Sequence record: OQ743992 | Source of the DNA: Escherichia phage vB_EfeM_pEP20 | DNA length: 64,000 nt | Direction: 5' to 3' (one strand) | Part shown: positions 48,081 through 54,927 of the stretch, in pieces | Layout of the letters: each line of letters begins with the position of its first letter | Position numbering within the stretch: the first letter of the stretch is position 1 | Notes under the pieces: generated by a model | The model's database searches: none | What the model was told of the DNA's origin: nothing | What the model saw: only the letters and a program-made list of their open reading frames with translations | Translations under genes and position numbers: made by a program

Positions 48081-48156
48081 TGGAGAATCCGAAGGGACTC
48101 GAACCCTTATAAACCTGTTTTGCAGACAGGCACATAGCCATTTCTGTCACGGATTC
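48081..48156 (-). tRNA. tRNA-Cys (anticodon GCA)
   Basis: Hand-folded: perfect 7-bp acceptor, anticodon loop CTGCAAA, T-arm AAGGG-TTCGAGT-CCCTT, discriminator U, CCA encoded. Confidence 0.75.
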
Positions 48157-48160
48157 AAAT

Positions 48161-48253
48161 TGGAGGAAGATACCAGACTTGAACTGATACACCGATTTCT
48201 CAGCTACTGGCAGTTTAGCAAACTGCTCCCTTACCTTTTAGGGTTAATCTTCC
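48161..48253 (-). tRNA. tRNA-Ser (anticodon GCT), class II
   Basis: Perfect acceptor GGAAGAT/ATCTTCC, anticodon loop TTGCTAA, about 20-nt variable arm, T-loop TTCAAGT. Confidence 0.75.
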
Positions 48254-48254
48254 A

Positions 48255-48989
48255 TTATTTCTGTAATGCGTTCTTCATTTCTGGTGTTGCAATAGTGTCA
48301 ATTACACCAGTTTTACAAGCATCATCAAACCAGTCTGGTAAGATACCTGCTAAGAACCCATTGATATTCGTTTTAAGGTACTCTGCAATAAGGGCAGCTT
48401 CTTCTTCAATCATCTGCACAACTTCATCTGCATAAGCTGTAATCTTTGAGATACCTTCATTAATCTTGCTAACAGCTTGGTTAGCTAAATCAGAAATAGT
48501 ATCAAGACCTTTATCAATAGCATCTTGTAAGTCACTTAATACATCGTTAACACCGTCTAGTGCACTGTTAATTGTGTCAATAGCTTTTTGACCATATTCT
48601 GTAGCAACACCCATAATACCACTAAATGGTGTACAACCAACTTGCTCTCCTGCTGCACCCATAACATTGGAATATCCTTTTGCTACCTGCATACGTGATG
48701 AAAACTCATCAATGGACTTTTGACCGTAATCTGTCAGTGTCTTAGTGGTTGATGTAGTGCTTGTCAGACTCGTTGTAAAGCTGTTAAGCAGAACTGTTGT
48801 AAGTCCAGCGGCAACAAGTTTATCCTTTATTGTAGGGTCTGTTACAGAGCTAATAGAGCTTACAAGTGATGTAGAGGCAGCTACGGTTCCACCGAGAACT
48901 GCTGCACCAGTAATAAGGGGATTAGAAAACCCTCTACCGGTTTTTAAGAGACCAAAAATCTCCTTACCTTGTTCTGTCATCTCTTTCAT
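48255..48989 (-). CDS. hypothetical protein with hydrophobic segment and coiled-coil region, embedded in the tRNA array
   Basis: Start taken at ATG 48989 (MKEMTEQ...) behind AAAGGTG; the longer track start would overlap a tRNA-like gene. Confidence 0.45.
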   Translation of the reverse strand: MKEMTEQGKEIFGLLKTGRGFSNPLITGAAVLGGTVAASTSLVSSISSVTDPTIKDKLVAAGLTTVLLNSFTTSLTSTTSTTKTLTDYGQKSIDEFSSRMQVAKGYSNVMGAAGEQVGCTPFSGIMGVATEYGQKAIDTINSALDGVNDVLSDLQDAIDKGLDTISDLANQAVSKINEGISKITAYADEVVQMIEEEAALIAEYLKTNINGFLAGILPDWFDDACKTGVIDTIATPEMKNALQK

Positions 48990-49005
48990 TAAGCACCTTT
49001 GAAAT

Positions 49006-49080
49006 TGGTAGTTCAGTGGGATTTGAACCCTCTTCTCATGTTTTTCAGACACGCGCTTTAACCATATAAGCTACTTGGAC
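49006..49080 (-). tRNA. tRNA-like gene with Phe-type anticodon arm (GAA); acceptor stem does not pair, possible pseudo-tRNA
   Basis: Good D-arm (GCTT/AAGC) and anticodon arm (loop CTGAAAA), T-loop TTCAAAT, but 5' GTCCAAG cannot pair with 3' TGAACTA. Confidence 0.35.
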
Positions 49081-49087
49081 TATAAAT

Positions 49088-49163
49088 TGGGGTGACCTAC
49101 GGGATTTGAACCCGTATAGACCATGTTCACAGCATGGGTCATTACCATTTATGATAAGGCCAC
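49088..49163 (-). tRNA. tRNA-His (anticodon GTG)
   Basis: Acceptor GTGGCCT/AGGTCAC, D-stem TCAT/ATGA, anticodon loop CTGTGAA, T-arm ACGGG-TTCAAAT-CCCGT. Confidence 0.7.
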
Positions 49164-49194
49164 ATTTAAGGACTCTCGTAAGAATCCTTAGAAG

Positions 49195-49270
49195 TGGCAG
49201 CGGCATAAGGATTTGAACCTTAATAAGACAGCTTCAGAGACTGCTGCATTGCCAGTTATGCTATACCGCT
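49195..49270 (-). tRNA. tRNA-Gln (anticodon CTG)
   Basis: Acceptor AGCGGTA/TGCCGCT, D-stem GCAT/ATGC, anticodon loop CTCTGAA. Confidence 0.6.
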
Positions 49271-49275
49271 AAATT

Positions 49276-49354
49276 TGGTACTCCATATCGGATTCGAACC
49301 GATACATAACACAGATTTTAAGTCTGGCCTCTCTGCCAATTGGAGTAATGGAGC
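49276..49354 (-). tRNA. tRNA with Leu-type anticodon TAA but short variable arm (atypical)
   Basis: Acceptor GCTCCAT/ATGGAGT, perfect T-arm ATCGG-TTCGAAT-CCGAT, Leu-like D-loop AATTGGCAGAG, anticodon loop CTTAAAA, discriminator A, variable region only about 7 nt. Confidence 0.5.
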
Positions 49355-49356
49355 AT

Positions 49357-49432
49357 TGGCGGGGGATGCTGGAATTGAACCAGCTTCTTCGATTTCAAAG
49401 ACCGAGGTTTTAACCTTGTAAACTAATCCCCT
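49357..49432 (-). tRNA. tRNA-Gln (anticodon TTG)
   Basis: D-stem GTTT/AAAC, anticodon arm TCGGT-CTTTGAA-ATCGA, T-arm GCTGG-TTCAATT-CCAGC; first acceptor pair mismatched. Confidence 0.6.
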
Positions 49433-49440
49433 TTAAATCT

Positions 49441-49998
49441 TTACTTTCTTAGTGGATGAATAAAGAATGCCAACATAACTCTTTCCCTTGAGAATGCTCT
49501 TTCTTCTGGGACAACACTTTTTAGTTTCCATCCAATATAAATTCTCCAGTAAAACTGTTTACCAAAGACTTTAATTGATGGGATAAAAGCGAATAATCCC
49601 CAAGCATTACTGTTCCACATTAGGAGATAACCAGTCTGATTATCTTCAGGGTCAGAACTTACGTTGATATTACCTTTCCACTTAGTAACATCTTTTACAT
49701 CTCTTCCTAATACATGGTAAGAGAAGTTATAAGCTTTGTTTCTCCAGAGCCATCCAACTCTCTGCATATAAACACCAAGCTTACCAATCTTTCTAATCTT
49801 AGCCCATCTCTCAACGTGGCCTTTGTCACCATCAATCGGGTTGTCATAGGTCTCCATCCATCTGAATCCAAAAGGTAGATGCCCTTTCTTCTCGCTGTAG
49901 AATGGAACCACAAATGGTGCTAAGATTACTGCTAAGATTGCTGCAAATGGTTCTAGCAAAGCTAGGAAAATCCATGAAGCATATTTTAAATATCTCAT
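49441..49998 (-). CDS. hypothetical membrane protein (185 aa) inside tRNA array
   Basis: N-terminal hydrophobic helices (IFLALLEPFAAILAVILAPFVVPF). Confidence 0.45.
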   Translation of the reverse strand: MRYLKYASWIFLALLEPFAAILAVILAPFVVPFYSEKKGHLPFGFRWMETYDNPIDGDKGHVERWAKIRKIGKLGVYMQRVGWLWRNKAYNFSYHVLGRDVKDVTKWKGNINVSSDPEDNQTGYLLMWNSNAWGLFAFIPSIKVFGKQFYWRIYIGWKLKSVVPEERAFSRERVMLAFFIHPLRK

Positions 49999-50237
49999 CG
50001 TCTAATCCTTGTAAGGAGATAAGTGTTATTATTTGTTTCTGAGTTTTCTGGTAACATTGTCTCAAAATTGACACTTTTAAGTTGTCTTCCACCAAAGTAA
50101 TGACCAATAAATTTTTCTACTCTTATTGGGTCGCATTCCCAGCCGACTTTCAAGAAAATGTGGGTATCTATAGTGGGAACCCTTACAAACTCAACACTAT
50201 TGGAATTTTCATGTTCAACGACTATTAATGTTTGCAT
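49995..50237 (-). CDS. hypothetical protein (80 aa) inside tRNA array
   Basis: Track ORF with overlap to downstream gene. Confidence 0.4.
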   Translation of the reverse strand: MQTLIVVEHENSNSVEFVRVPTIDTHIFLKVGWECDPIRVEKFIGHYFGGRQLKSVNFETMLPENSETNNNTYLLTRIRR

Positions 50238-50245
50238 AAATCCCT

Positions 50246-50321
50246 CTTACTTAATTGGCGCAGGATAAGGGATTCGAACCCCTATTAACAGCTTCGTAGA
50301 CTGTTGCTCTATCCATTTGAA
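50246..50321 (-). tRNA. tRNA-Arg (anticodon ACG)
   Basis: Perfect acceptor GCAGGAT/ATCCTGC, anticodon loop CTACGAA, T-loop TTCGAAT. Confidence 0.7.
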
Positions 50322-50326
50322 CTAAT

Positions 50327-50404
50327 CCTGCAAAATTGGTGTTCCAAGACGGATTCGAACCGTCACTAGTACAAGGTTTGAGCTTGCATCCTCTGCCAAT
50401 TGGG
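50327..50404 (-). tRNA. tRNA with Leu-type anticodon CAA but short variable arm (atypical)
   Basis: Acceptor GTTCCAG/TTGGAAC, Leu-like D-loop AATTGGCAGAG, anticodon arm GCAAG-CTCAAAC-CTTGT, perfect T-arm GACGG-TTCGAAT-CCGTC, discriminator A, 6-nt variable region. Confidence 0.5.
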
Positions 50405-50405
50405 A

Positions 50406-50480
50406 TACTGGAACATGGTACTCACTAAAGGACTTGAACCTTTTTCTTCATCTTGTAAGGGTGATGTTTTACCATATAAA
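50406..50480 (-). tRNA. tRNA-Val (anticodon TAC)
   Basis: Acceptor ACTCGCT/AGTGAGT, D-stem GTTT/AAAC, anticodon loop CTTACAA, T-arm AAAGG-TTCAAGT-CCTTT. Confidence 0.65.
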
Positions 50481-50577
50481 CTAAGCGAGTGTGAAAAGAG
50501 GTCTGAAGTTGTGCCGCTAACTCAACTCCGTGGAATTTGTTACGGTCTTCAGTTGACTCAAAGCGGTCTTTCACTTG

Positions 50578-50653
50578 ACCTCTAAATTGGTGCTCCCACA
50601 AGGATTCGAACCCTGATAAGTTGCTTACAAGGCAACCGTAATAGCCAATTATA
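50578..50653 (-). tRNA. tRNA-Thr (anticodon TGT)
   Basis: Acceptor GCTCCTA/TGGGAGC, anticodon arm GTTGC-CTTGTAA-GCAAC, T-loop TTCGAAT. Confidence 0.65.
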
Positions 50654-50660
50654 CGATAGG

Positions 50661-50735
50661 AGCATTAATTTGGAGCATCCAGAGGGAATCGAACCCTCAA
50701 CCTCAGTTTGGAAGACTGTAATTTTCCCGTTTAAA
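50661..50735 (-). tRNA. tRNA-Gly (anticodon TCC)
   Basis: Perfect acceptor GCATCCA/TGGATGC, anticodon loop CTTCCAA, T-arm GAGGG-TTCGATT-CCCTC. Confidence 0.7.
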
Positions 50736-50741
50736 CTATGG

Positions 50742-50817
50742 ATGCACTAATTGGTGGAGTCACTGAGAATTGAACTCAGTTCCCAAGTTTGCAAAACTCG
50801 AATTTTAACCATATAAA
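50742..50817 (-). tRNA. tRNA-Ala (anticodon TGC)
   Basis: Acceptor GGGGTCA/TGACTCC with the G3-U70 pair, anticodon loop TTTGCAA, T-arm CTGAG-TTCAATT-CTCAG. Confidence 0.75.
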
Positions 50818-50824
50818 CTATGAC

Positions 50825-50900
50825 CCCCATTGTTTGGTACAGGTGGATGGAATTGAACCCATCGTCTTACTGATTAAGAGTCAGCCGCATAACCATTTTG
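50825..50900 (-). tRNA. tRNA-Lys (anticodon CTT)
   Basis: Acceptor GCAGGTG/CACCTGT, anticodon arm GCTGA-CTCTTAA-TCAGT, T-stem GATGG/CCATC. Confidence 0.6.
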
Positions 50901-50907
50901 CTACACC

Positions 50908-50984
50908 TGCATTAATTTGGTACACCTAGAGAGATTCGAACTCACACTGAGCAGATTCTAAGTCTGCTGCCTCTACCAGTTGGG
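50908..50984 (-). tRNA. tRNA with Leu-type anticodon TAG but short variable arm (atypical)
   Basis: Acceptor GCACCTA/TAGGTGT, Leu-like D-loop CAACTGGTAGAG, perfect anticodon arm GCAGA-CTTAGAA-TCTGC, T-loop TTCGAAT, discriminator A, 5-nt variable region. Confidence 0.5.
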
Positions 50985-51249
50985 CTATAGGTGCATTAAA
51001 TCTTTTTAGAGAACTTCTAAGAACCTAAGCAACAAGGTTCCACAACAAGCTGTAATAACCTTAGAAGCCCTCTAAAAAGACCTAAATAGGTCTTTGCATA
51101 GTCTTGTTTAATCCGGTGACTAGAACCTTTGGAGAGCTTGATATTATCTCTTCTCCGTGACACCTACTAGGTGCTTTATCAGTGTGTACGACAATACACG
51201 AGGGATAAACCGAAAATGCGAGCAAGCATGGACGGTATAAATCTTATTA

Positions 51250-51339
51250 GGCGGTAAGTAAAGGAGTCGAACCCTCACCGTATCTCTACAGTGGCAACTG
51301 TTTTCAAGACAGTTTGGCTACCATTAGCCGCTACCTACC
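51250..51339 (-). tRNA. tRNA-Ser (anticodon TGA), class II
   Basis: Acceptor GGTAGGT/ACTTACC, perfect anticodon arm ACTGT-CTTGAAA-ACAGT, 20-nt variable arm, T-loop TTCGACT; CCA not fully encoded. Confidence 0.65.
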
Positions 51340-51352
51340 CCTAATAAGACTT

Positions 51353-51435
51353 TGGCATGGGACGGAGGAGTTGAACCACTTTGAAACGGTTTTGGAGGCC
51401 GTTGCTCATGCCTTAGAGTCTTAACATCGTCCCAT
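51353..51435 (-). tRNA. tRNA-like gene with Trp-type anticodon loop (CCA) and expanded 5' D region (atypical)
   Basis: Perfect 7-bp acceptor ATGGGAC/GTCCCAT with discriminator G and CCA; loop CTCCAAA on stem ACGG/CCGT; about 8 extra nt before the D-arm and a weak T-stem. Confidence 0.4.
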
Positions 51436-51587
51436 ACTTTAATTCGAAGCTTACCGTATTTTCGCAACACTGTAAAGCCCCTTCTCAGATTATTTACATG
51501 TTCTGGAAAACATGAGATACAGACCACCTCCTTACACGGAGACCCGATAAGGTCGTCTAAGCAATCTGCTAACTATTTGGCACACCC

Positions 51588-51664
51588 TACAGGATTCGAA
51601 CCTGTAACTAACGATTTAGAAGACCGTTGCTCTATCCAATTGAACTAAGGGTGCATTAATCTTT
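51588..51664 (-). tRNA. tRNA-Arg (anticodon TCT)
   Basis: Acceptor GCACCCT/AGGGTGT, D-stem GTTC/GAGC, anticodon arm ACGGT-CTTCTAA-ATCGT, T-arm ACAGG-TTCGAAT-CCTGT. Confidence 0.7.
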
Positions 51665-51991
51665 AAAGACTCTCTTAGAAAGCCCTTAAAGATGCCCACC
51701 TTATTAATCATACCGTGGGCTAGTACGCCAAATTCTTTGATGAGGGATTGGAAGACCTCACTGGTGTTTAGCCTATCAAGCTACTGCCAGAAAAACATTG
51801 TCGTTTGCATTTATTTTAAATTTGCAAAATAGACGCTACGCAACGAAAACTATTCAGAATATGTACAACAAATTTCCCCACATTGTGTTACGTCTAACGC
51901 TCATGTATTGGTGTTTGAATTATACATATTATGAATCATTTTTAGTTACTATAAAGCGGTCACATCTCAATGTCAACAACTTTATTGAAAT

Positions 51992-52067
51992 TGGTGCTGG
52001 TAGGTGGAATCGAACCACCGATATTCCCTTATCAGGGGAGTGTTATAACCTTCTTAACTATACCAGC
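51992..52067 (-). tRNA. tRNA-Ile (anticodon GAT)
   Basis: Perfect acceptor GCTGGTA/TACCAGC, D-stem GTTA/TAAC, anticodon loop CTGATAA, T-arm GGTGG-TTCGATT-CCACC. Confidence 0.7.
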
Positions 52068-52068
52068 T

Positions 52069-52145
52069 TGGAGGTTCAGATGGGAATCGAACCCACATTC
52101 ATAGGGCTTATGAAACCCCTGCATTACCTTATCTGCGACTGAACC
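52069..52145 (-). tRNA. tRNA-Met (anticodon CAT)
   Basis: Acceptor GGTTCAG/CTGAACC, anticodon arm with three consecutive G-C pairs and loop TTCATAA, T-arm GTGGG-TTCGATT-CCCAT. Confidence 0.65.
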
Positions 52146-52149
52146 ATAT

Positions 52150-52225
52150 TGGTAGAAGTAGAGGGATTCGAACCCATCGCCTGTCAGATTAAAAGTCTGC
52201 CGCATCACCATTCTGCTACACTTCC
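52150..52225 (-). tRNA. tRNA-Lys (anticodon TTT)
   Basis: Acceptor GGAAGTG/TACTTCT (two G-U pairs), anticodon loop CTTTTAA, T-loop TTCGAAT with a weak stem. Confidence 0.55.
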
Positions 52226-52229
52226 ATTA

Positions 52230-52373
52230 AATTATCTTTGTAGATAAGCTACCCAGACTTGCTTAAGGTCTGTAGCGATGTGCCTTTTTGGGTTTAAATC
52301 TAGAATTTACCCTTTCACCCTTTGTGGTCGCATACTCACAGGTAAGCTTAATAACTTATCTACAAAGATAATT
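52230..52373. repeat. 19-bp perfect inverted repeat (AATTATCTTTGTAGATAAG) enclosing about 106 bp
   Basis: Arms at 52230-52248 and 52355-52373 are exact reverse complements; the enclosed sequence holds hairpin CCCAGAC-TTGCTTAAG-GTCTG. Confidence 0.6.
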
Positions 52374-52374
52374 A

Positions 52375-52506
52375 CCAGACCGTTGTTTATCATCTTAAGT
52401 GCTACCATTACACCAACTCGACATCTGCCGAGTGAAGGAATCGAACCTTCGCCTTTTCTTTACCGGAGAAATAGATTGTTTAAAGTTTGCTGTAAACGGT
52501 CTTCTG
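52375..52506 (-). ncRNA. candidate Y-RNA-like ncRNA U1 with embedded tRNA-like module (YrlA-like architecture)
   Basis: Minus-sense 5' CAGAAGACCGUUUACAGCAAAC ... ACGGUCUGG 3' with termini pairing (AGACCGU/ACGGUCU); interior has hairpin UUUCU-CCGGUAA-AGAAA, T-arm GAAGG-UUCGAUU-CCUUC, closed acceptor-like hairpin ACUCGGC-AGAU-GUCGAGU, D-arm GUG-UAAUGGUAG-CAC. Confidence 0.5.
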
Positions 52507-52519
52507 TAAATTTGTTGAG

Positions 52520-52604
52520 CCAGACCAAGTTTTAAATTTTTCAAAATTAAATTGGCTTGAAATTTTAAGTAACTTGCTGAATTTGGTCTTCTGCTCCTTT
52601 AAAG
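52520..52604 (-). ncRNA. candidate Y-RNA-like ncRNA U2
   Basis: Minus-sense 5' CAGAAGACCAAAUUCAGCAAG ... UUGGUCUGG 3'; terminal stem AGACCAA/UUGGUCU covaries with U1/U3. Confidence 0.45.
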
Positions 52605-52690
52605 AATACTCGTAAGAACTCTTTAAGGGAGGGGCTAAATAGCCCTCTCAAACATCATTTTGAAATACTTATTATAATTTGGCGGTTACG

Positions 52691-52768
52691 AAGGGATTCG
52701 AACCCTCATCATCTCCCGTGACAGGGGAGTATTTTAACCAGATTAAACTACATAACCTTCATTTGGTG
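52691..52768 (-). tRNA. tRNA-Asp (anticodon GTC)
   Basis: Acceptor GGTTATG/CGTAACC, perfect anticodon arm CTCCC-CTGTCAC-GGGAG, T-loop TTCGAAT. Confidence 0.7.
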
Positions 52769-52774
52769 TGCCGT

Positions 52775-52862
52775 GTAGGAGTCGAACCTACCGAGTCTTA
52801 ATGACAAGGGATTTACAGTCCCCACCGCTACCATCTACGGGATAACGACACATTTAAATTTG
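52775..52862 (-). tRNA. tRNA-Tyr (anticodon GTA), class II
   Basis: Acceptor GTGTCGT/ACGGCAC, anticodon loop CTGTAAA, long variable arm, T-arm GTAGG-TTCGACT-CCTAC. Confidence 0.65.
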
Positions 52863-52871
52863 GCGGTTAGT

Positions 52872-52948
52872 CAGGGATTCGAACCCTGTGCCATTCGCTT
52901 AACAGGCGACCGCACATACCTTATGTGCTTCCTAACCTTAATACATTG
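52872..52948 (-). tRNA. tRNA-Asn (anticodon GTT)
   Basis: D-stem GCAC/GTGC, anticodon loop CTGTTAA, T-arm CAGGG-TTCGAAT-CCCTG; last acceptor pair mismatched. Confidence 0.65.
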
Positions 52949-52959
52949 CCAGACCGTGT

Positions 52960-53020
52960 TTTTTCTTTTATCCACAAAAAAGTAGTTTGTTGCTGAATAC
53001 GGTCTTCTGCAAAATTGGAG
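52960..53020 (-). ncRNA. candidate Y-RNA-like ncRNA U3
   Basis: Minus-sense 5' CAGAAGACCGUAUUCAGCAAC ... CACGGUCUGG 3'; internal hairpin CUUUUUU-GUGGAU-AAAAGA. Confidence 0.45.
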
Positions 53021-53026
53021 GCGGGT

Positions 53027-53103
53027 GCAGGAGTCGAACCTGCCGATACCATGCTAATGAGACATGTGAGACGCCCTTTCTCTATACCCGCAATTCTTAA
53101 TGA
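53027..53103 (-). tRNA. tRNA with anticodon CAT (second Met, or Ile2 if lysidine-modified)
   Basis: Anticodon arm CATGT-CTCATTA-GCATG, T-arm GCAGG-TTCGACT-CCTGC; first acceptor pair mismatched. Confidence 0.6.
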
Positions 53104-53114
53104 CCAGACCAAAT

Positions 53115-53187
53115 CTCTTCTTTGTCCGATTTCGTGTCAGATGAATAAGCTTAAGTTTGCTGTAATTGGTCTTCTGTCAAAACTGGC
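53115..53187 (-). ncRNA. candidate Y-RNA-like ncRNA U4
   Basis: Minus-sense 5' CAGAAGACCAAUUACAGCAAAC ... UUGGUCUGG 3'; same conserved 5' core and covarying terminal stem as U2. Confidence 0.45.
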
Positions 53188-53194
53188 GTTCCAG

Positions 53195-53272
53195 AAGGGA
53201 TTTGAACCCTCAAATATCCACTTTGAAAGAGTGGTGACTTTACCATTTTGTCTACTGGAACATTAATTTGGT
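53195..53272 (-). tRNA. tRNA-Glu (anticodon TTC)
   Basis: Perfect acceptor GTTCCAG/CTGGAAC, perfect anticodon arm CCACT-CTTTCAA-AGTGG, T-loop TTCAAAT. Confidence 0.7.
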
Positions 53273-53279
53273 CTCTGTT

Positions 53280-53356
53280 GGAGGACTTGAACCTCCGGCC
53301 TTACCGCCCCAAACGGAACGCTCTACCAAGCTGAGCTAAACAGAGATAAACTTTTC
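53280..53356 (-). tRNA. tRNA-Pro (anticodon TGG)
   Basis: Perfect acceptor CTCTGTT/AACAGAG, D-stem GCTC/GAGC, anticodon loop TTTGGGG, T-arm GGAGG-TTCAAGT-CCTCC. Confidence 0.7.
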
Positions 53357-53511: not shown

Positions 53512-54927
53512 TTACCAGATGTAACGGTCAATCATTACTGCTTTGAGCATTACGCTGATTGGGTCAAACTTCTCACCACCGAGCAGAGCTTTTAAAGTGG
53601 CTGGAGAGAACCCTGATACCATTGCTACACCGTTATCCTTAACAGACACTTCGCAAGTACCATTACGGTTTGCTAAGTACCAGAATACCAGTTGTGGCAT
53701 TTCGTATCCAGCTTTTTTGTACTTACTACGAATTGCTTCAAAGTTTGTACGACCATTTGCACCATCAACCTGATTGAACTCCATATCAGAGAAGATGATA
53801 AGCTTACTTGGCATATCTTTCTGAGTCAAGTTGTTTCTCTTACCTGTCTCAAGAATACGGTCAAAAGCTGCTTGTAAGTTAGTTGAGCCATATTCAACAT
53901 GACGCATCACCTGACGATGACGGTTTTTCAAATCACCACTCAGTTCGATGAAATGAGGGTTTGTTGAATAAACCATTAACTCATTCTTAAAGCAACCCGT
54001 ATTGCGTTCTGCTACATACAAGGCAAGGGATACACCAATATCAAGGGCAGTGATTGAACCAAGATTCACCCAAGACATTGAGCTTGAAACATCAGTCATA
54101 CACAGGATGTTCTCACCTTCTGCCATCCAGTTTGGTAGTGCTTTCCACTGCTCATTAGCCACATCTGCATTACCATACTTAATAGATTTAATCACATCGT
54201 ATGGGTAAACAGCACCAGCGTTAATCTTAACCTCACCCTTTGAGAGTGACTCGATGTAAGCTTTGTAACGTTCCCCATCTTTACGGTTAAAGAGTTTTTG
54301 GTAACGTGCAGTAGCGAGTGAAGGAATCTTGCTGTAGTCAATCTTACCAAACTCATTAGCAGAGATTTTTTGCTCAACCGTATCAGACAGTGCAGATAAC
54401 AGTGTGCGATACTCCTTCTCACTTAAGTTTGCAAACTTACAGAAACGTTTTACAAACTGTTTGTGGCGTGGTTTTACTCGTGGTAACCACTTAGCCGCTA
54501 AACCTGCTGTTGCAGGGTCTAGTAATGCTGCTTCTAAATGTTTGAAGGCATCTGTCTCAAAACGAGTGCCTACGAAGATTTTGAAGTCATCAAAACGACC
54601 AAGTTCTGCAATCTTATCCATAATGCGAAGAACCTGTGTAGGTTCTAAAACTTTATCTTCAATCGCTTGAAGTAAAACAGTTCGGAAAGCTTTACGCTCA
54701 CCCATACCTTCTCGTACATCTCGCATATGCAGTAAAATACGAACTGCAACATCAACATCCTCACGCAAAGCTTTGTAGAACAGGTCTGGTAAGATTTCTA
54801 CATTGCTACGGCTTGAGCCAGCGGCTTTGTAAAAGTCTACCAGAGCAGACATTGATGAAGTATGGTTTACAGCACCATTTTCAGTTCGACCTGCATGAAG
54901 GTGCGCATGTTTAAATAACTCGCTCAT
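53512..54927 (-). CDS. Ro60-like protein (TROVE-like helical N-terminal region + von Willebrand A domain with MIDAS motif)
   Basis: 471 aa; helical N-terminal 260 aa, then DVSSSM MIDAS motif and a C-terminal region that aligns from memory with the Ro60 vWA domain (DVSASM...LGSI, GSTN vs GGTD, IFSDME vs VFTDNE). Confidence 0.5.
   Translation of the reverse strand: MSELFKHAHLHAGRTENGAVNHTSSMSALVDFYKAAGSSRSNVEILPDLFYKALREDVDVAVRILLHMRDVREGMGERKAFRTVLLQAIEDKVLEPTQVLRIMDKIAELGRFDDFKIFVGTRFETDAFKHLEAALLDPATAGLAAKWLPRVKPRHKQFVKRFCKFANLSEKEYRTLLSALSDTVEQKISANEFGKIDYSKIPSLATARYQKLFNRKDGERYKAYIESLSKGEVKINAGAVYPYDVIKSIKYGNADVANEQWKALPNWMAEGENILCMTDVSSSMSWVNLGSITALDIGVSLALYVAERNTGCFKNELMVYSTNPHFIELSGDLKNRHRQVMRHVEYGSTNLQAAFDRILETGKRNNLTQKDMPSKLIIFSDMEFNQVDGANGRTNFEAIRSKYKKAGYEMPQLVFWYLANRNGTCEVSVKDNGVAMVSGFSPATLKALLGGEKFDPISVMLKAVMIDRYIW

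Follow-up and report, generated by a model that had tools for sequence, protein, structure and literature searches.

A candidate RNA family of enterobacterial phages that combines a tmRNA-type tag template with a predicted anti-tmRNA domain

Results and discussion

A tmRNA-like RNA in a phage tRNA array

Spacer C, one of the gaps in the tRNA gene array of Escherichia phage vB_EfeM_pEP20 (sequence record OQ743992), encodes an RNA that is a member of a large unannotated RNA family of enterobacterial phages and prophages. On comparative evidence, this family appears to join a tag template of the transfer-messenger RNA (tmRNA, SsrA) type to a domain antisense to host tmRNA, with no tRNA-like part. 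The stretch of 64,000 nucleotides that was analyzed (the window) comes from a Felix O1-like myophage; its positions 50900-52100 match 278 phage records, the best of which is Escherichia phage HMD-P10, at 98% identity. In the array, ARAGORN predicts 26 tRNA genes, which span 48081-53345 and lie without exception on the minus strand; no gene for tRNA-Trp is among them. Three gaps are considered here, with the bounds 50995-51249 (spacer A), 51340-51577 (spacer B) and 51655-51991 (spacer C). They appear to be functional parts of a polycistronic locus of tRNAs and noncoding RNAs (ncRNAs) on the minus strand.

About 125 nucleotides of spacer C (51693-51817) match phages unrelated to Felix O1 in sensitive BLAST searches, with 70-82% identity. 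A focused search finds the element in 649 phage records, almost all of them unannotated at that place. The carriers fall into the Felix O1-like, ViI-like, N4-like, P1-like and lambdoid groups, and the records include Kuttervirus, Taipeivirus, Gamaleyavirus, 46-49 kb Klebsiella phages, Sashavirus and Erwinia Kolesnikvirus. Matches also are present in 756 of 5426 complete E. coli genomes. Of these, 137 cover at least 80% of the query; the others are mostly partial (29-37% of the query among the matches listed) and lie on plasmids of about 91-114 kb; a single such plasmid, L132, was inspected, and it is P1-like. The position of the element is between dmt and tRNA genes in P1-like plasmids, between Q and the holin gene in a lambdoid prophage, and just after gene Q in a lambdoid Enterobacter phage. 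E. coli strain PM4-5 is an example of a host genome with the lambdoid copy. A pattern scan of IMG/VR adds at least 120 further loci. The family members found belong to Enterobacterales phages or to contigs of unidentified host. Among Ounavirinae relatives, the spacer C element is 95-100% identical, compared with 68-84% for the flanking tRNAs.

Tag frame and structure

The central part of the RNA contains a frame that begins with a GCA resume codon and reads ANDNVFLAVA (Table 1), which is close to the E. coli tag ANDENYALAA. This frame consists of 10 codons and a stop in all 95 unique relatives, and the other two frames differ in length. The consensus of the 95 sequences is AN[DE]xxxLx[AV]A: codon 1 is GCA (Ala), codon 2 is AAC or AAT (Asn), codon 3 is GAT, GAC or GAA (Asp or Glu), codon 7 is CTG or TTG (Leu), codon 10 is any of the four GCN codons (Ala), and the stop is TAA, TGA or TAG. 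The constant length and the synonymous variation are a clear coding signature. The resume context AUAAAU-GCA is nearly invariant, and has A-U-A at positions -6 to -4, as in AAUAGUC-GCA of E. coli. Within the E. coli resume element (A84-U85-A86), A86 is of functional weight. A small ORF initiated by AUG and overlying the resume codon (AUG CAA ACG...) was considered and rejected, as its length varies among 5, 7, 9 and 13 codons.

The structure was evaluated by using an alignment of 35 sequences (A2), scored against a fold that we specified, which comprises an upstream hairpin, a two-part helix-5-like hairpin, hairpin H2 and an H-type pseudoknot. In this alignment, 87.7% of cells are paired, versus about 40% when the partners are slid, and 101 cells are changed on both sides, versus 29.9 in shuffled alignments (none of 500 shuffles reached 101). 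The helix-5-like hairpin has the pair variants CUGG/CCAG and CUGA/UCAG, as well as UGGC/GCCA and UGCAA/UUGCA, and three of the five pairs of H2 covary (UGAGG, CAAGG, UAGGG and CGGGG variants). Stem S1 of the pseudoknot pairs CGUAC (51723-51727) with GUAUG (51709-51713); it is paired in 96.6% of cells and occurs as CGCAC/GUGUG, CGUAC/GUAUG, CGCAG/CUGUG and CGCAU/AUGUG. Stem S2 pairs GCCCAC (51715-51720) with GUGGGC (51694-51699), and all four pairs covary. A preliminary description of these gaps, made from the sequence, had listed GCCCAC...GTGGGC as a hairpin; the two halves are indeed present at 51694-51720, but as one stem of the pseudoknot and not as a free hairpin. The near-invariant G-U pair in S1 indicates that the minus strand is the transcribed one. 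On this strand, folding z-scores relative to shuffled sequence are -3.72, -2.05 and -5.65 for spacers A, B and C, respectively.

As had been stated earlier for 51000-51249, 51436-51587 and 51665-51990, there is no credible ORF: mechanical ORFs of just 27-67 amino acids are present, and no frame is conserved. Two ORFs of 46 and 48 amino acids, annotated as hypothetical proteins in relatives, were rejected, given that their frames are not conserved and that RNA covariation and the strand-specific G-U pair overlie one of them. Insertion of an HNH endonuclease gene breaks one spacer ORF, and compensatory RNA changes overlie another. Relatives also have annotated hypothetical proteins on the opposite strand (wV8 gene 49, AYO145A orf048) that are homologous to positions 51692-51832 (+) of the window. 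Calls of this type opposite the tmRNA-like RNA are most likely spurious.

A 5' domain complementary to host tmRNA

The motif within the 5' domain (Table 1) is the exact reverse complement of codons 3-6 of the E. coli ssrA tag, as checked against the fetched E. coli sequence. In the form (U)AGUUUUCGU(C), it is found 44-60 nucleotides upstream of the resume codon in approximately 100 of 110 unique cores. The complementarity comprises three blocks within nucleotides 68-106 of tmRNA: the 3' strand of PK1 (UAAAAAGCCGC), the linker with the resume codon (UAGUC-GCA), and tag codons 1-6. Local alignment of the window to the reverse complement of ssrA gives a score of 28, with nucleotides 81-106 as the target, versus 15.3 +/- 2.1 for shuffled sequences, none of 300 of which reached it. 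Tests of 12 members gave scores of 28-36, versus 15.5 +/- 2.1 for shuffled sequences, and in 9 of the 12, none of 300 shuffles reached the observed score; L003, L014 and L069 scored 20-22, and 4-11 of 300 shuffles reached those scores.

Over the family (104 members), the mean antisense score is 28.8. Control scores are 13.3 for the RNA's own tag region, 13.6 for the sense strand of tmRNA, 13.3 for the reversed and 16.9 for the complement-only sequence, and 14.7-16.5 for other parts of the RNA. The sense, reversed and complement-only controls all score below the antisense match in 103 of 104 members, and the own tag region does so too in 103 of 104. For the duplex with the host segment, the predicted energy is -35.8 kcal/mol, compared with -21.5 kcal/mol for that with the own tag region and -20.1 kcal/mol for that with shuffled host sequence. 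In the family, the target is always located within tmRNA nucleotides 68-106, and one scan of genome contigs finds the exact 33-nucleotide target in Escherichia, Klebsiella, Enterobacter, Citrobacter, Kluyvera, Kosakonia and other genera. The phage and host tags differ exactly where the antisense domain is specific. These comparisons point to a conserved and specific complementarity to host tmRNA that is above that of the controls.

Hairpin loops with ACGAAA(C) occur in other modules (53125-53141 in the window; also L001, L009, L011 and L036), and part of the UUUUCGU seed is complementary to such loops. As intramolecular partners of the 5' motif, such loops provide 6-7 base pairs only.

Because many base-pairing small RNAs (sRNAs) have their seed at the 5' end of the transcript, as appears to hold for a third of the members of this family, perhaps the RNA is purely an antisense inhibitor or sponge. 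Such an RNA would only bind tmRNA and block or destabilize it, and the tag would be the leftover of a captured ssrA fragment, or a scaffold. The strength and family-wide presence of the antisense domain agree with this explanation, as does the lack of a tRNA-like domain. We nevertheless think it unlikely. A leftover would not hold 10 codons and a stop in 95 of 95 sequences with synonymous turnover, an invariant Ala-Asn start and constrained Leu and Ala positions, and the resume context would not be expected to be nearly invariant.

Absence of a tRNA-like domain

The spacer C RNA is without a tRNA-like domain. Sequence inspection and Rfam reveal no T arm or acceptor end between the promoter and tRNA-Arg. 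A T-arm scan of 105 unique loci finds no canonical T arm from 450 nucleotides upstream to 500 nucleotides downstream in 62 of them, and the T arms near the remaining loci derive mostly from ordinary tRNAs at variable distances. Candidates for a tRNA-like domain beside the tag were sought by eye in L001-L003, with relaxed ARAGORN settings and in the T-arm scan, and were rejected: they are only neighboring tRNAs, or closed tRNA-like hairpins, at variable positions. With default settings, ARAGORN predicts no tmRNA in the window or in L001-L007. Covariance-model searches, the check named in the preliminary description, return only tmRNA matches in spacer C that are below threshold (in the window, 15.2 bits for RF00023 and 20-25 bits for tmRNA_permuted, with a gathering score of 47). 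The RF00023 match spans model positions 56-294, without either model end, and tmRNA_permuted gives 20-33 bits across the window and L001-L003, likewise below threshold.

The phage RNA shares with tmRNA an A-rich upstream element, the GCA resume codon, a 10-codon tag starting with Ala-Asn-Asp/Glu, stop codons in a helix-5-like hairpin (supported here by covariation), and a pseudoknot after it. In contrast to tmRNA, it lacks an acceptor stem, a T arm, a CCA end and the P2 helix; a simple hairpin takes the place of PK1, one pseudoknot follows the tag instead of three, and nothing corresponds to PK3 or PK4. It also differs in having a 5' domain that is antisense to the tmRNA of the host. Phages encode it in niches of tRNA genes, where it often leads an array of structured RNAs.

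According to genome announcements, "the tmRNA gene, ssrA" was detected with ARAGORN in Citrobacter phage Moogle, and Felix O1 likewise encodes ssrA. When run with its defaults on Citrobacter phage Mordin, ARAGORN predicts a permuted tmRNA that has the tag ANDNVFLAVA. As a gene, this candidate was rejected. The call joins the tag to the T arm and GCCA of a Y-RNA-like element located about 600 nucleotides upstream and takes a part of tRNA-Lys as the "5' tRNA domain"; it therefore detects the tag and not a real tmRNA. This tag probably underlies the ARAGORN tmRNA calls that have been published for Felix-like phages, Mordin being the one call dissected. Searches of the open-access literature returned nothing on an anti-tmRNA or a tmRNA mimic of phages, and no paper was found there on the family, its missing tRNA-like domain or its antisense domain.

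The Mordin call and the published reports of ssrA could also reflect a phage tmRNA in several pieces, whose acceptor function is provided by a permuted tRNA-like element in the same array (52375-52510). The 7-bp acceptor-like stem of this element covaries in three genera (GUCGAGU/ACUCGGC in the window, GGCGUGU/ACACGUU in phiSUSP1, and GAAGGGU/ACCCUUC in Mordin, where GCCA is encoded after the stem), and the YrlA RNA of M. smegmatis is cleaved by RNase P and receives CCA. In addition to the chimeric nature of the Mordin call and the frequent lack of a nearby T arm, several observations make such an arrangement quite improbable. Between the two parts lie three tRNA genes and a promoter. The acceptor-like stem has no G3-U70 in the window, phiSUSP1 or Mordin, the position being C3-G70 in the first two and A3-U70 in Mordin. 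Also, the element has the arm order of YrlA RNAs (T, acceptor-like stem-loop, D) and is found beside a gene for a Ro60-like protein.

Promoter, insertion and transcript ends

The preliminary description suggested that the gaps might contain internal promoters or processing sites, and both ideas gain support from the sequence. A predicted sigma-70-type promoter is located in spacer C just after tRNA-Ile, with a predicted transcription start near 51941. Its hexamers, its 17-nucleotide spacer, its retention in Felixounavirus, Mooglevirus and Suspvirus relatives, and the presence of an RNA downstream are all consistent with a functional promoter. The genome paper of Felix O1 lists a promoter, P45, with identical hexamers and spacing. 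Among the 95 unique members of the family, 32 have a comparable sigma-70 promoter that ends 6-12 nucleotides before the GTTTTC motif, which places the seed at the 5' end of the predicted transcript in those members.

In the window, an insertion of about 92 nucleotides that forms a long hairpin separates the promoter from the 5' motif. Such an insertion is present in the window and 111 records and is missing from many relatives, so that the predicted length of the RNA is about 290 nucleotides in the window and about 195 nucleotides in relatives that lack it. The minimum-free-energy fold pairs the insertion with the 5' motif and partly sequesters the motif. A 60-nucleotide core of the insertion also is found in 52-kb phages that resemble phiEcoM-GJ1 (flopper, PYps3T), which suggests that it is a small mobile hairpin element.

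Next to the 5' ends of tRNA-Arg and tRNA-Leu there are conserved leader hairpins, which are candidate processing sites. The tRNA-Arg leader hairpin probably marks the 3' boundary of the spacer C RNA, with RNase P cleavage presumed at 51654/51655. Motifs similar to this hairpin occur at 49165, 51662 and 52599 (D19), and the tRNA-Arg leader hairpin itself contains insertions in some relatives.

With leader hairpins next to tRNA genes, a region that is a hot spot for insertions and deletions, including HNH gene insertions, and promoter-like sites that are no more common than chance (14 versus 15.1 expected), the gaps might be ordinary spacers. They would then hold a promoter, pre-tRNA leaders and trailers, and processing hairpins, and their conservation would stem from recent recombination among close phages. 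This explanation is very improbable, and it is contradicted for spacer C by covariation, the pseudoknot, the coding signature and the antisense specificity, as well as by the similarity of the element in unrelated phage families and prophages, outside a tRNA context.

A possible mechanism

The tag frame has no start codon and looks translated, and trans-translation is therefore the process we infer. Trans-translation needs an alanyl tRNA-like domain and SmpB. An RNA that has no such domain, yet carries a handle on host tmRNA, favors docking. The spacer C RNA might thus pair with host tmRNA and swap or block its tag template, a reading that seems possible to us, although somewhat short of probable. 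In such a scheme, the 5' end of the RNA, whose 3' end would be formed by RNase P cleavage at tRNA-Arg, would anneal to host tmRNA and open the RNA's own hairpin. Docking would mask the host resume codon and first tag codons and would bring the phage resume codon and tag template next to SmpB and the tRNA-like domain of the host; the phage resume context would be about 20 nucleotides away from the duplex end, close to where PK1 of the host is located. A phage-specified tag would then be added in infected cells or, at minimum, host tagging would be inhibited. The broader proposal, that the Felix O1, ViI-like, N4-like, P1 and lambdoid elements hijack trans-translation by supplying in trans, through base pairing, a phage tag template that replaces that of the host, is put forward with more reserve.

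Several points weigh against this docking scheme. Its support is drawn entirely from sequence comparison. A single complementarity of 10 nucleotides, which was rejected as proof, is reached by 5.8% of shuffles against the whole tmRNA, and the case depends on the extended, family-wide pattern. The target sequence is common to all known hosts, leaving no covariation of seed and host to compare. Antisense block 3 overlaps the RNA's own hairpin and could instead be a relic of the PK1 strand, and in the window the 92-nucleotide insertion partly hides the seed. An elongating ribosome can unwind short duplexes. We know of no precedent for a tag template that is given in trans by base pairing. Finally, the phage tags are still degron-like, so the gain from swapping them is not evident.

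Trans-acting, base-pairing sRNAs are familiar from phages and prophages, for example DicF and the anti-sRNAs AgvB and AsxR of O157 prophages. The family resembles them in that a short promoter-driven RNA has, at its 5' end or close to it, a single-stranded seed that is conserved and complementary to a host RNA. It differs in that its predicted target is the stable, noncoding tmRNA, which is neither an mRNA nor an sRNA, and in that the complementarity extends over approximately 30-39 nucleotides in three blocks and is accompanied by a tag frame that looks translated.

The T4 tRNA region yields the stable RNAs known as species 1 and 2 and RNA C and D. The preliminary description had likened the gaps to these. 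The likeness, by description only, is that of small non-tRNA RNAs in a phage tRNA cluster that are released by tRNA-processing enzymes, and no T4-like phage is among the non-tRNA matches listed. Covariation and family-wide conservation do argue for a structured RNA in spacer C; it appears to be derived from tmRNA, however, and is not T4-like.

Table 1. Predicted features of the array region, with positions in the window
Feature	Position	Strand	Remarks
Promoter, sigma-70-type (predicted)	51948-51976	-	TTGACA-17 nt-TATAGT; 11 of 12 consensus positions
Insertion, ~92 nt	51853-51944	-	arms 51846-51868 and 51920-51942 (inverted repeat I4)
Putative anti-tmRNA 5' domain	51826-51852	-	motif UAGUUUUCGU (51843-51852), then GCG.CUAUUUU; antisense to ssrA
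Short hairpin	51813-51830	-	AUUUU-GCAAAUUU-AAAAU; at tmRNA PK1 position; helix 1 of A2, 80.9% of cells paired
A-rich linker	51809-51812 and flanking bases	-	AUAAAU; nearly invariant
Putative tag frame	51773-51808	-	GCA AAC GAC AAU GUU UUU CUG GCA GUA GCU UGA UAG; ANDNVFLAVA, stop, stop
Helix-5-like hairpin	51761-51790	-	around tag end and stop codons; helices 2 and 3 of A2
Hairpin H2	51741-51760	-	UGAGG-UCUUCCAAUC-CCUCA; conserved loop GGUCUUCC; 99.4% paired
H-type pseudoknot	51694-51727	-	S1 and S2; loop AUUAAUAA
Leader hairpin of tRNA-Arg(UCU)	51659-51693	-	inverted repeat I18; directly upstream of tRNA 5' end
Spacer B conserved stretch	51436-51577	-	nearly invariant; framed hairpin AGACGACC...GGUGGUCU (51521-51558); hairpin 51497-51514
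tRNA-Trp(CCA)-like gene, noncanonical	51353-51435	-	acceptor AUGGGAC/GUCCCAU (perfect 7 bp) and GCCA; anticodon loop CUCCAAA
Spacer A ultra-conserved core	51076-51205	-	includes hairpin 51076-51095; candidate stable RNA
Leader hairpin of tRNA-Leu(UAG)	50996-51085	-	90 nt, 26-nt arms (inverted repeat I1); ends 2 nt before tRNA 5' end
Permuted tRNA-like element	52375-52510	-	closing stem AGACCGUU/AACGGUCU, T arm, 7-bp acceptor-like stem with 4-8 nt loop, D arm
Ro60-like protein gene	53512-54927	-	471 aa; heads tRNA array; Pfam DUF2828 and DUF7788; PHROG 850 "RNA-binding protein"

Spacers A and B

The gaps had been described as free of tRNAs, and neither ARAGORN nor, above threshold, Rfam detects any within the three intervals given above. 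The hairpins AAAGACC-TAAATA-GGTCTTT and CATGTT-CTGGAAA-ACATG, reported in the same description, are found in spacers A and B (Table 1). The recurrence of GGTCT also is borne out: the array spacers (1,610 nucleotides) contain 17 GGTCT/AGACC sites, versus 1.9 +/- 1.4 in shuffled sequence, an enrichment of about 9-fold, and none of 2000 shuffles reached 17.

The core of spacer A is 89-100% identical in Felixounavirus, Mooglevirus and Suspvirus, and the flanking tRNAs are 71-74% identical. The core was not found in an Erwinia phage or in other groups. The leader hairpin of tRNA-Leu has conserved arms and a variable apical part, and its Rfam matches are to microRNA-precursor models only, reflecting its hairpin shape. 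The conserved stretch of spacer B (Table 1) is 85-99% identical across the three genera, above the neighboring tRNAs, and contains a 23-nucleotide hairpin insertion in some relatives. No Rfam family matches spacer A or B, apart from hairpin-shaped microRNA artifacts, and homologues of either were not found outside the Felixounavirus, Mooglevirus and Suspvirus relatives examined. Because there is a near absence of variation and there are no outside homologues, no covariation test is possible. Spacers A and B are strongly constrained, and are probably stable RNAs or protein-binding segments.

The segment at about 51340-51435, which the preliminary description had left outside the tRNA-free gaps, holds a conserved, noncanonical tRNA-Trp(CCA)-like gene. 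In the window, ARAGORN does not call it, and Rfam gives 21.3 bits on the tRNA-Sec model only; ARAGORN does call a tRNA-Trp in the L114 variant. The D arm is weak, and the T stem has a U-U mismatch in the window, which is a G-U pair in most relatives. The anticodon stem covaries (CGG/CCG versus UAA/UUA). Between this gene and tRNA-Ser, an ORF for an HNH endonuclease of about 135 amino acids is inserted in some relatives (L114, 7937-8368; L130, ~1846-2250); in L114 and phiSUSP1, the HNH ORF is directly downstream of the tRNA-Trp-like gene. Endonuclease genes also occur elsewhere in the same gaps in other relatives. The spacers are landing sites for homing endonucleases.

A YrlA-type element, a Ro60-like protein and framed modules

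YrlA Y RNAs have the topology T arm, acceptor-like stem-loop, D arm and are encoded next to Ro60. The permuted element at 52375-52510 has this arm order and an enclosing stem, and a Ro60-like gene is nearby, in agreement with a YrlA-type Y RNA. ARAGORN also borrows this element for its tmRNA calls. It differs from YrlA in that the 5' motif GNCGAAN0-1G was not found on inspection of its 5' arm CAGAAGACCGUUUACAGCAA, and in that the neighboring gene encodes a DUF2828/DUF7788 protein with only 11-16% identity to solved Ro60 structures. These comparisons concern the element and not the spacers. No Rfam family matches the element.

The AlphaFold model of the neighboring protein has a mean pLDDT of 89, and its top 11 matches in the PDB are all Ro60/TROVE proteins, one of them a Ro60 from a Thermus phage. 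Judged by this model, the protein appears to be a structural homologue of Ro60/TROVE-vWA. It has more than 2,300 relatives; of the 120 listed, those with names come from phages (Escherichia, Yersinia, Vibrio).

At least four Y-RNA-like modules (family D13) are enclosed by recurring AGACC/GGUCU stems, and a similar frame is present in spacer B at 51521-51558. The modules at 52515-52597, 52945-53013 and 53100-53180 (-) are framed by CAGAAGACC-N5-CAGCAA ... GGUCUGG, with flanks that covary; the last contains a hairpin (53125-53141) with the loop CACGAAA.

The proximity of a Ro60-like gene that heads the array, and of Y-RNA-like modules that share these stems, raises the question of whether the spacer C RNA is a protein decoy or part of a ribonucleoprotein. 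Its body might titrate or recruit SmpB, S1 or RNase R, or bind the Ro60-like protein, possibly via the GGUCUUCC loop, and its pairing with tmRNA would then be of secondary importance. In sequence, the H2 loop GGUCUUCCGA is similar to GGUCCGA, which the literature gives as the vertebrate Ro-binding sequence. This role is improbable in our estimation, as no Ro60-like gene is annotated in the 4-6 kb around the widespread P1-like (L132) and lambdoid (L001, L133) members, the H2 loop of P1 differs, and the coding signature is left unexplained.

In phage and prophage contigs of 40-65 kb (L001, L009-L014, L021, L036), the tmRNA-like RNA is one module in an array of long hairpins. The stems of this array are conserved (ACAGGTAAGAGCATTG...CAGTGCTCTTTCC and GTTGTGGTG...CACCACAAC) and the cargo is variable. 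Some of the cargo contains a T arm and a closed acceptor-like hairpin, and Rfam matches none of the array.

Other features of the locus

The gap at 50491-50587 (-), 97 nucleotides between tRNA-Thr and tRNA-Val, contains three GGTCT sites and a CUGAAG/CUUCAG stem, and may be a further framed module. An inverted repeat of 22 nucleotides (52230-52251 and 52352-52373, 95% complementary) encloses 100 nucleotides and would form a long leader hairpin just upstream of tRNA-Lys(UUU). GenBank record GU169904.1, assigned to Staphylococcus phage SA1 (147 kb), includes a 96% match to Felix O1-like tRNA-region sequence and is probably a mixed or chimeric assembly.

Conclusions

To our knowledge, tmRNA is universal in bacteria, and it is usually seen as a self-contained molecule. 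If the proposed docking takes place, a tag template provided in trans would be an undescribed mode of tmRNA reprogramming, and an RNA that corresponds to the template half, with an antisense handle, would show that phages directly target ribosome rescue. Such an RNA also would be a natural tool for re-tagging or for blocking trans-translation, and it would explain and correct scattered phage tmRNA calls, at least those with the chimeric pattern seen in Mordin. The element goes unannotated in hundreds of genomes of phages used for therapy and biocontrol, and in some it is mislabeled as a hypothetical protein of the opposite strand. The occurrence of a Ro60-like protein, Y-RNA-like modules, tRNAs and the spacer C RNA in one locus suggests that the phage has a coherent toolkit that concerns RNA and translation.

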